Shown one piece after another: positions 62,075 through 62,831 of a stretch of DNA of 64,000 nucleotides. The stretch is from a virus. Lineage: Duplodnaviria > Heunggongvirae > Uroviricota > Caudoviricetes. How positions within the stretch are numbered: position 1 is the stretch's first letter; each line of letters begins with the position of its first letter. The stretch is from the IMG/VR virus record IMGVR_UViG_3300015615_000629, positions 224,001 to 288,000 of that record, one strand, 5' to 3'. The notes beneath the pieces are model-generated. The model searched no databases. It was given only the letters and a program-made list of their open reading frames with translations, and was not told the DNA's origin. A program made the translations under genes and the position numbers.

Positions 62075-62195
62075 AGGACAAATTCAAATCGTCTGAGTCG
62101 TATGAGCTGTTAAACTAACACCTTTTCAATGGGTGTGCTTATGAGGCACATTGTTTGTAAGGCTCAAGCAGTTGGAGACGATTTGAATTTGTCCT
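62075..62195 (-). ncRNA. Y-RNA-like unit A
   Basis: Perfect 20-bp terminal stem; GUCU-CCAAC...GACUC-AGAC internal loop; TACAAACA box; hairpin ugugc-CUCAUAA-gcaca. Confidence 0.75.
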
Positions 62196-62201
62196 CTCTT
62201 A

Positions 62202-62346
62202 AAAAACACTACTTCATCTGAGTCGCACTAGCAGTTTTGATAAACAACTAGGAATCGAACCTAGTCTTCAACCTCTGAAGGGTTGCGTCCTACCAACGGA
62301 CACTTGTTTGTAATGCTGTTGCAGTTGGAGACGTAGTAGTATTTTT
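62202..62346 (-). ncRNA. Y-RNA-like unit B containing tRNA cloverleaf (anticodon UCA)
   Basis: 18-bp terminal stem with G-U pairs on minus strand; same motifs; D arm gtcc/ggac, caacc-CUUCAGA-ggttg, T arm ctagg-TTCGATT-cctag (62242-62309); no CCA. Confidence 0.8.
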
Positions 62347-62355
62347 CCTCGTGTA

Positions 62356-62565
62356 TTAACCGAACACGGCTTCCGGACGAACCGTAATGTCACCCGTTGC
62401 CCGGTTGCGTTCAACGTGCATGTAACTCAACTTGCCCGACTCCAAATTTAAATGAGCCGTGACAGCCGACAAAATCTGTTCGTCAGACGAAACTTCGCCA
62501 ATATCAAGCAAGTTCTGCTCGACATCGTAACTTCGTCCGTCGTATCGAATGTGTAGTTGAGCCAT
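62356..62565 (-). CDS. ubiquitin-like (beta-grasp) protein with C-terminal Gly
   Basis: 69 aa, beta-beta-alpha-beta-beta pattern, ends ITVRPEAVFG; SD AAGGGG; E1/JAB nearby. Confidence 0.7.
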   Translation of the reverse strand: MAQLHIRYDGRSYDVEQNLLDIGEVSSDEQILSAVTAHLNLESGKLSYMHVERNRATGDITVRPEAVFG

Positions 62566-62588
62566 TTTAGTTTACCCCTTGTAAAAAA

Positions 62589-62698
62589 GACTTCGGTATC
62601 TGAGTCCTAGCAGCGTTGTCTTTGGGGCTTCACGCCCCGCAGACGGTCAAAACTTTGCAAGTGTTTGTAATGCTGTTAGCGTTGGAGACACCTGAGTC
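62589..62698 (-). ncRNA. Y-RNA-like unit C
   Basis: Terminal stem gactcaggtgtct/agataccgaagtc; CCAAC-N11-TACAAACA and GACTC motifs; inner ggggc/gcccc hairpin. Confidence 0.7.
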
Positions 62699-62700
62699 AA

Positions 62701-62831
62701 GGCGGGAGATGCTGGATTCGAACCAACTATTTCGGTTTTCAGTCGAAACGTTACCTTGTTTGTAGAGTTCTGTCAGTTGGCGACGGTAAAACCATCGAAG
62801 TCGAAAAAACCTGACTTTTTTAAATCTCCCG
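62701..62831 (-). tRNA. tRNA-Phe(GAA)-like RNA with large insertion replacing the D arm (unit D)
   Basis: Acceptor gggagat/atctccc, T arm gttgg-TTCGAAT-ccagc, anticodon loop CUGAAAA; insert contains CCAAC-N11-TACAAACA. Confidence 0.65.

Follow-up and report, generated by a model that had tools for sequence, protein, structure and literature searches.

Ro60 and the Y RNAs together form a conserved RNA-surveillance particle, which is also a human autoantigen. The Y RNAs of metazoans and Deinococcus (Y_RNA RF00019; Yrn1, Yrn2) join an end stem that holds the protein site to a variable effector module, and several paralogous RNAs accompany one Ro60. In its canonical form, the related YrlA RNA has the body of a circularly permuted tRNA, whose parts run V, T, closed acceptor stem-loop, D; it lacks both an anticodon loop and a free acceptor end (Chen et al., 2014, PMC4201824; Wang et al., 2018, bioRxiv 10.1101/312249). 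Its handle bears the sequence GNCGAAN0-1G near the 5′ end, which has been proposed as the strand that contacts Ro (Chen et al., 2014, PMC4201824). YrlA is encoded within 4 kb of Ro and on the same strand, and in M. smegmatis it is cleaved by RNase P and gains CCA (PMC4201824). Y-like RNAs encoded upstream of a phage Ro60 were also known previously (PMC4201824; PMC12135203). In the Thermus phage phiLo these RNAs are Yrl1 and Yrl2 (PMC12135203; PDB 9KOP, 9L5Y), and binding of upstream-encoded Y-like RNAs by a phage Ro60 has been demonstrated (PMC12135203).

The window considered here is a 64-kb stretch of a complete phage genome of 572,167 bp, a virus record with terminal repeats. It contains four units, A to D, which are probably Y-RNA-type noncoding RNAs of a phage-encoded Ro60, of a distinct clade common to Planctomycetota-type bacteria and huge phages. 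The pattern CCAACN11TACAAACA has four exact matches in the window, all on the minus strand (62152-62175, 62305-62328, 62662-62685 and 62757-62780), where 0.12 are expected by chance and none of 100 shuffles attains four. Across the whole genome, exact matches to CCAAC-N11-TACAAACA are confined to these four minus-strand sites. The array, read along the minus strand, is made up as follows:

62860..62887, minus strand, candidate sigma-70-type promoter TTGACA-16-TAGATT ahead of unit D (10 of 12 consensus matches)
62704..62830, minus strand, unit D, a permuted ‘module-in-tRNA’ form (from its fold and RNAalifold of relatives)
62589..62698, minus strand, unit C, standard form, followed by a U6 tract
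62356..62565, minus strand, 69-aa ORF inside the RNA array between C and B, ending ...PEAVFG (conserved by tblastn)
62208..62340, minus strand, unit B, standard form, with a U6 tract at its 3′ side
62240-62310, minus strand, native-order tRNA cloverleaf embedded in unit B, anticodon UCA (Rfam, ARAGORN)
62076..62194, minus strand, unit A, standard form with a 19-bp P1
62044..62066, minus strand, hairpin AAACCGCC-UUUC-GGGGCGGUUU plus U run between unit A and the Ro gene, intrinsic-terminator-like as read straight from the sequence (a terminator consensus scan did not flag it)

In their RNAfold minimum free energy structures, units A, B and C all close a CCAAC/GACUC internal loop. The terminal stems (P1) that do so differ in sequence and in length, with 19 bp in A, 12 or more in B and 7-11 in C, and the folds have z-scores of -5.0 (-5.04), -3.7 and -4.2 (-4.15), respectively. 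The two boxes of the loop lie at 62175-62171 (CCAAC) and 62099-62095 (GACUC) in unit A, and at 62685-62681 and 62606-62602 in unit C, all on the minus strand. The P1 stem of unit B is ACUACUACGUCU/AGAUGAAGUAGU, and that of unit C is GGUGUCU/AGAUACC, lengthened by GACU/AGUC. In each of the three, P1 and the internal loop are followed by a second helix (P2), then UAC and an AAAC/GUUU helix (P3), and finally a variable domain. P1 contains two G-U pairs in unit B and one each in units C and D, which would be C-A mismatches on the plus strand, and the RNA strand is therefore the minus strand. These results agree with the first-pass annotation, which had reported four related motif copies with an invariant 11-nt spacer, long stems of differing sequence at the ends of A to C closing a conserved loop, and G-U pairs favouring the minus strand. 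That reading did not include P2, of which the N11 spacer is the 5′ strand. The consensus for what we call the handle is thus P1, an internal loop (5′ CCNAY, 3′ RACUY), P2, and then UAC with AAAC/GUUU. On inspection the internal loop is not a K-turn, as its 5′ strand lacks the required GA, and in the units inspected the final base of CCNAY shows no consistent covariation with the R of RACUY that would indicate pairing.

The domain carried by the handle differs from unit to unit. In the predicted folds it consists of two hairpins in unit C, and in unit A it includes an anticodon-like stem-loop (UGUGC-CUCAUAA-GCACA). The insert of unit B is a tRNA, which scores 45.3 bits with the Rfam tRNA model (RF00005) against a cut-off of 29 and covers model positions 1-71; the conserved CAAACAA doubles as its 5′ acceptor strand. 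Unit D is arranged differently, as here the handle module takes the place of the D arm within a tRNA-like frame. Along the minus strand, a 7-bp acceptor stem (GGGAGAU/AUCUCCC) leads into the 3′ strand of P2, GACUU (62802-62798), a P1 hairpin (CGAUGGU-UUU-ACCGUCG, 62797-62781), CCAAC (62780-62776), the 5′ strand of P2 and then UACAAACA at 62764-62757. An anticodon-like arm with a GAA loop and a T arm (GUUGG-UUCGAAU-CCAGC) complete the frame. Since GACUU-CGAUGGU-UUU-ACCGUCG-CCAAC holds both the 3′ box and the P1 hairpin, unit D is circularly permuted rather than truncated. De novo analysis of eight permuted units with RNAalifold yields the acceptor stem, P2 and P1 as well as the anticodon-like arm and the T arm; 17 of the 31 pairs show compensatory changes (n=8 units).

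Searches based on the Ro protein identified ~30 phage/metagenome loci and at least 560 bacterial loci. Most of the latter come from Planctomycetota, with others from Chloroflexota and Cyanobacteria, and contigs of several megabases carry many of them; among deposited phage genomes, a single uncultured 595-kb record carries this Ro clade. A script search of the phage/metagenome loci found 49 standard and 20 permuted units. In 17 of the 49 standard units the handle encloses a 10-29-nt apical loop alone, without a tRNA. These 17 minimal units (10-29 nt between the halves) were aligned cleanly by MAFFT, and a covariance model (R1) was built from them, all from other phages and with no sequence from the window. 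R1 recovers unit A with 44 bits (E 4e-9), unit B with 23.6 bits and unit C with 21.3 bits (E 0.007), and a search of the window and the whole 572-kb genome gave no match beyond these three. In related loci it matches 63 units in phage/metagenome Ro loci and 127 units in 79 bacterial Ro loci, and all 127 of the latter are on the strand of the Ro gene.

P1 and P2 covary strongly. The MAFFT alignment of the 17 minimal units has double changes in 12 pairs of P1 and P2, and none of 500 shuffles equals the observed values. In the bacterial set all 19 P1 and P2 pairs are compensatory; pair counts are inflated in alignments A3 and A6, since both were fitted to the model. When the pairing partners are slid as a control, pairing drops from ~80% to 30-50% (30-45% in the bacterial set). 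P3 (AAAC/GUUU) is invariant where aligned, and the alignments break at the variable domain. The units thus belong to a real, conserved and covarying RNA family without an Rfam entry.

The gene directly downstream of the array presumably encodes the partner protein of these RNAs. Units A to D lie 67-820 nt upstream of it and on the same minus strand, and it is the second gene of an operon (55882-62565, minus strand) that begins with the 69-aa ORF of the array and continues as follows:

60504..62009, minus strand, Ro60 orthologue of 501 aa with a TROVE HEAT-repeat ring and a vWA domain (fold match)
58401-59207, minus strand, p268 (structure model, pLDDT 89)
58016-58501, minus strand, JAB peptidase (Prok-JAB, 31 bits)
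55882-56520, minus strand, ThiF-type E1 (112 bits)

An AlphaFold2 model of the 501-aa protein (22-sequence input; pLDDT 88, pTM 0.82) was compared with known structures by Foldseek, and the 11 best full-length matches are all Ro60, Rsr or phiLo Ro60 (TM 0.57-0.66), from frog, human, Deinococcus and Thermus phage phiLo. A phmmer search of the PDB matches phiLo Ro60 only (E 2.9e-5). In a Pfam scan there is no TROVE match, and vWA_Ro60 reaches 23 bits, below the cut-off of 27.7. By its modelled fold, the product is a divergent Ro60.

The other genes of the operon travel with it. The 69-aa Gly-ended ORF, p268, JAB and ThiF genes stand beside Ro on one strand in 30, 25, 17 and 15 phage/metagenome loci, and in 43, 41, 22 and 37 of the 79 bacterial loci, the 69-aa ORF being found as tblastn matches on the Ro strand. 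A Pfam scan gives no family for the 69-aa ORF. The p268 model has weak Foldseek matches to tandem OB/S1/cold-shock-like nucleic-acid-binding domains, with TM below 0.3, and p268 has an invariant GICL motif close to its C terminus. The idea that p268 is an E2-like enzyme is unsupported, as Foldseek returned these weak OB/S1-like matches and no E2-like one. A literature search found no report linking TROVE to this type of gene set (69-aa ORF, p268, JAB and ThiF). Two further genes were observed at the locus. A 116-aa ORF within the operon (59204-59554, minus strand) carries a Pfam N_methyl prepilin-type motif (32 bits, above cut-off) and has no relatives in the other Ro loci. The ThiF gene and a small zinc-ribbon ORF are followed directly by a gene for an R2K-clade ATP-grasp protein (54245-55240, minus strand; Pfam R2K_3, 87 bits).

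The family has much in common with YrlA. Its RNAs are neighbours of a Ro60 orthologue, are encoded on the strand of that gene and often stand in arrays that include tRNAs; in A to C the folds and the covariation show the two ends joined in a stem whose internal loop leads to a second helix; and the order of parts (terminal stem, internal loop, second helix, YUAC, short helix, tRNA-like domain) is shared. The RF02553 consensus has AAACUUG before its 3′ terminal strand and CUAC after its second helix, which match the RACUU and UUAC of the family. The differences lie in the details of the handle and in what it carries. The 5′ loop strand of the family is CCNAY, UACAAAC is nearly invariant, and GNCGAAN0-1G is lacking, being present in one of 63 units (CGAA in five of 63) and absent from the handles of the window. 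The cargos in the window are not permuted tRNAs: that of B is in native order and has an anticodon loop, D is a tRNA-like frame with an open acceptor stem that hosts the handle, and A and C carry hairpins. The RF02553 model has no match in 61900-63000 even at E 10, and its best match in the whole genome (22.8 bits, against a gathering threshold of 69) is in a tRNA cluster away from the locus. Across the window and 37 related loci, Rfam at gathering thresholds and at E ≤ 10 returned no family other than tRNA, apart from sub-threshold YrlA in one bacterial array.

The permuted core of YrlA, which units A to D do not have, is found in sister units that share their handle. In a Pirellulales array (L130), at least seven units share a CGUAC-CCAAC...UACAAAC...GACUY-GUACG handle, and two of them enclose a T arm, closed stem and D arm, scoring 34-39 bits with RF02553 against the cut-off of 69. 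L008, from a distant Ro clade, likewise encloses a YrlA-type core in this frame, with UACAAAU as the box. Because the same handle encloses YrlA-type cores and its layout parallels the consensus, the family is a divergent branch of YrlA and no unrelated class, and the handle is read, on its boxes and layout, as a divergent version of the YrlA Ro-binding module. In that distant clade (~40% identity; L008 1560-2520, L025, L034) the RNA array was also observed on the strand opposite to Ro, pointing away from it, with CCUAAC...CUUACAAAU...AACUU boxes around a YrlA-type core that has a very long closed stem.

The likeness to phiLo is one of arrangement, in that a phage Ro60 is again preceded directly by at least two Y-like RNAs. 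However, the Yrl RNAs of phiLo were found through their CGAA motif and have no tRNA module, the Ro60 of the window is ~15% identical to phiLo Ro60 in structural alignment, and the locus in the window has four units, another handle and an operon with the 69-aa ORF, p268, JAB and ThiF. With the metazoan and Deinococcus Y RNAs the family shares an end stem for a protein site, a variable effector module and the provision of several paralogous RNAs for one Ro60. It differs in that the GGUCCGA/UUGAC helix with a bulged C, the metazoan-type Ro motif, occurs in none of the 63 units, and the Y_RNA model, like that of YrlA, has no match to the locus at E 10. The first-pass annotation had seen in the units the design of a Y RNA, with a protein-binding stem and a variable effector domain, and had pointed out that the motif differs from the canonical Ro site. 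Both points stand, the former now backed by the Ro60 fold of the neighbouring gene, the strand linkage and the covariation of the helices. Its proposal of a new Y-like class survives as far as the Y-RNA reading goes; a wholly new class is not what was found, the family being a YrlA-type branch.

Linkage between the RNAs and the Ro gene was also seen in searches that started from the RNA. When viral contigs were scanned for the motif first and the results filtered with R1, six contigs remained. Five of them encode this Ro; the sixth is a 58-kb phage fragment with a unit and no detectable Ro. In five bacterial genomes (~60 Mb, with the best 150 candidates scored per genome), five of six matches fall inside Ro loci. 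The sixth is a well-formed orphan unit bearing a tRNA (41 bits; G008:C1:103525-103646, which is L178 7526-7647, minus strand). Neither Ro nor p268, JAB or ThiF is encoded within 7 kb of it, and its Aeoliella genome has a complete Ro locus on a different contig. At four loci (L002, L012, L014 and L020) a half-handle, consisting of RACUU, a P1 hairpin and CCAAY, abuts the Shine-Dalgarno sequence of the Ro gene itself. The P1 hairpin of the half-handle has 6 bp and is usually closed by a tetraloop, as at 2980-3009 of L002, and at a fifth locus (L015) a mini-unit ends at the Shine-Dalgarno sequence of the Ro gene. The leader of the Ro gene in the window has no half-handle. The placement against the Shine-Dalgarno sequence is as expected if Ro binds the element, and may reflect translational autoregulation of Ro by the protein that it encodes.

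The linkage and the half-handle at the Ro ribosome-binding site together suggest that Ro60 binds the units. Under this reading, the Ro60 ring would dock on the handle, which would correspond to the stem through which YrlA and Yrn1 bind Ro. The TTGACA-16-TAGATT element, judged from its position alone, may be the array promoter, in which case one upstream promoter would transcribe all four RNAs towards the Ro60 gene, and their 3′ ends would probably be set by each unit's own stem and U-tract. The handle would then bear exchangeable cargo, namely hairpins in C, an anticodon-like stem-loop in A and a whole native-order tRNA in B, with unit D a variation in which the handle itself is placed within a tRNA-like frame. 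By analogy with Y RNAs, the cargo might tether Ro60 to tRNA-recognising partners or gate the access of substrates. A more ambitious version holds that the handle-tRNA chimeras are no passive Y RNAs and act as adaptors, which show tRNA bodies and anticodon loops, among them opal- and amber-type ones (UCA, CUA), to a machine of Ro60, the OB-fold protein, the Gly-ended protein, ThiF and JAB. The chimeras would serve as decoys or sensors for anticodon-directed nucleases, or as substrates for ubiquitin-like tagging or thiolation of tRNA-shaped RNA; the pathway would be one that Planctomycetota and huge phages have in common, and Ro60 would regulate its own mRNA through the half-handle. We regard this extended scheme as speculative and, taken whole, unlikely.

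Other readings of the locus have to be weighed against Ro60 binding. As the 69-aa ORF, p268, JAB and ThiF are conserved together with Ro and the RNAs, linkage alone cannot name the protein that binds the handle. The handle might instead be bound by OB-fold-like p268, the 69-aa protein or the ThiF-type E1, with the RNAs serving as the scaffold or the substrate for a pathway of the ubiquitin-like or sulfur-carrier type whose targets are RNAs shaped like tRNA. This would fit the company that the four genes keep with Ro and the RNAs on one strand in both phages and bacteria, the position of the 69-aa gene within the RNA array, the ThiF (112 bits) and Prok-JAB (31 bits) matches and the resemblance of the p268 model to tandem S1/cold-shock-like domains. 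However, that resemblance is weak (TM below 0.3), the half-handle abuts the ribosome-binding site of the Ro gene and not those of its neighbours, and the handle parallels the Ro-binding module of YrlA in its layout and two boxes and bears YrlA-type cores elsewhere, all of which make the involvement of another protein in place of Ro60 distinctly improbable. Action at the level of DNA, as operators, recombination sites or a repeat element, or as mere terminators or cis-regulatory leaders of the Ro operon, might be suspected of clustered direct repeats that lie upstream of an operon and whose standard units end in a stem and U tract. Yet compensatory changes keep the pairing as the sequence shifts, many G-U pairs fit the Ro strand only, the bacterial matches are without exception on the strand of the Ro gene, and circularly permuted copies preserve the fold of the RNA and not the order of the DNA. 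We consider this account scarcely credible.

A further reading takes the units as cassettes for tRNA expression and processing, in which the handle supplies a leader and a trailer that stay paired until RNase P and 3′ trimming free a working tRNA, such as a UCA opal-reading tRNA from unit B. The embedded tRNAs do score up to 67 bits with the Rfam tRNA model, have at least 12 different anticodons and in several cases an encoded ACCA or UCCA 3′ end, and the processing of M. smegmatis YrlA described above provides a precedent. Extended pairing between leader and trailer generally disfavours RNase P, however, and the 17 standard units that have no tRNA indicate that the handle is the conserved entity. 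The embedded tRNAs also share one A/U-rich acceptor stem whatever their anticodon, and the tRNA of unit B has UCA in the position of CCA and an A/U-rich acceptor stem that contains a C-A mismatch and runs on into the handle. Recoding of TGA as a reason for the UCA anticodon was ruled out, as 178 of 566 long ORFs end in TGA, and reading TGA as sense does not extend the longest ORFs. The phage encodes its own normal tRNA-Trp(CCA), and together with the lack of TGA recoding this makes it unlikely that unit B is a working opal suppressor. Unit B can be aligned with orthologous units bearing other anticodons. In orthologous units the near-identical anticodon stem presents CCA, UAG or UGU, so that the anticodon evolves quickly while the body is conserved. 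On balance the cassette explanation is very unlikely, and Y-RNA-type partners of Ro60 remain the preferred reading of the units.

If the units are such partners, a large Ro60 clade, in at least 560 bacterial loci and in huge phages, relies on another handle, and its tRNA part is an interchangeable cargo: native in some units, permuted in others, host to the handle in others again, and absent from the rest. What is new here is the handle and a cargo topology far more varied than that of YrlA, with tRNA-in-handle, handle-in-tRNA and YrlA-type forms. This natural modularity offers ready-made variants for probing recognition by Ro60 and the recruitment of tRNA modules. The steady presence of ThiF, JAB and a small Gly-ended protein suggests that the Ro RNP is linked with ubiquitin-like chemistry, and no description of such a link was found in the literature searched. 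Rfam does not include the RNAs, and annotation may easily take their tRNA inserts for ordinary or suppressor tRNAs.

Anticodons of the stop-codon type recur among the embedded tRNAs, with UCA at 62240-62310 of the window and at 2297-2370 of L014, and CUA at 1866-1951 of L023. The phage itself has 40 tRNAs, among which ARAGORN reports a 93-nt tRNA with a CUA (amber-reading) anticodon at C1:30802-30894 of the genome; the ORF statistics give no sign of TAG recoding. Lastly, a short hairpin, UGGCAACC-AAU-GGUUGUCA, lies at 62831-62853 (minus strand) between the candidate promoter and unit D, and its stem sequence CAACC/GGUUG is that of the anticodon stem of unit B.
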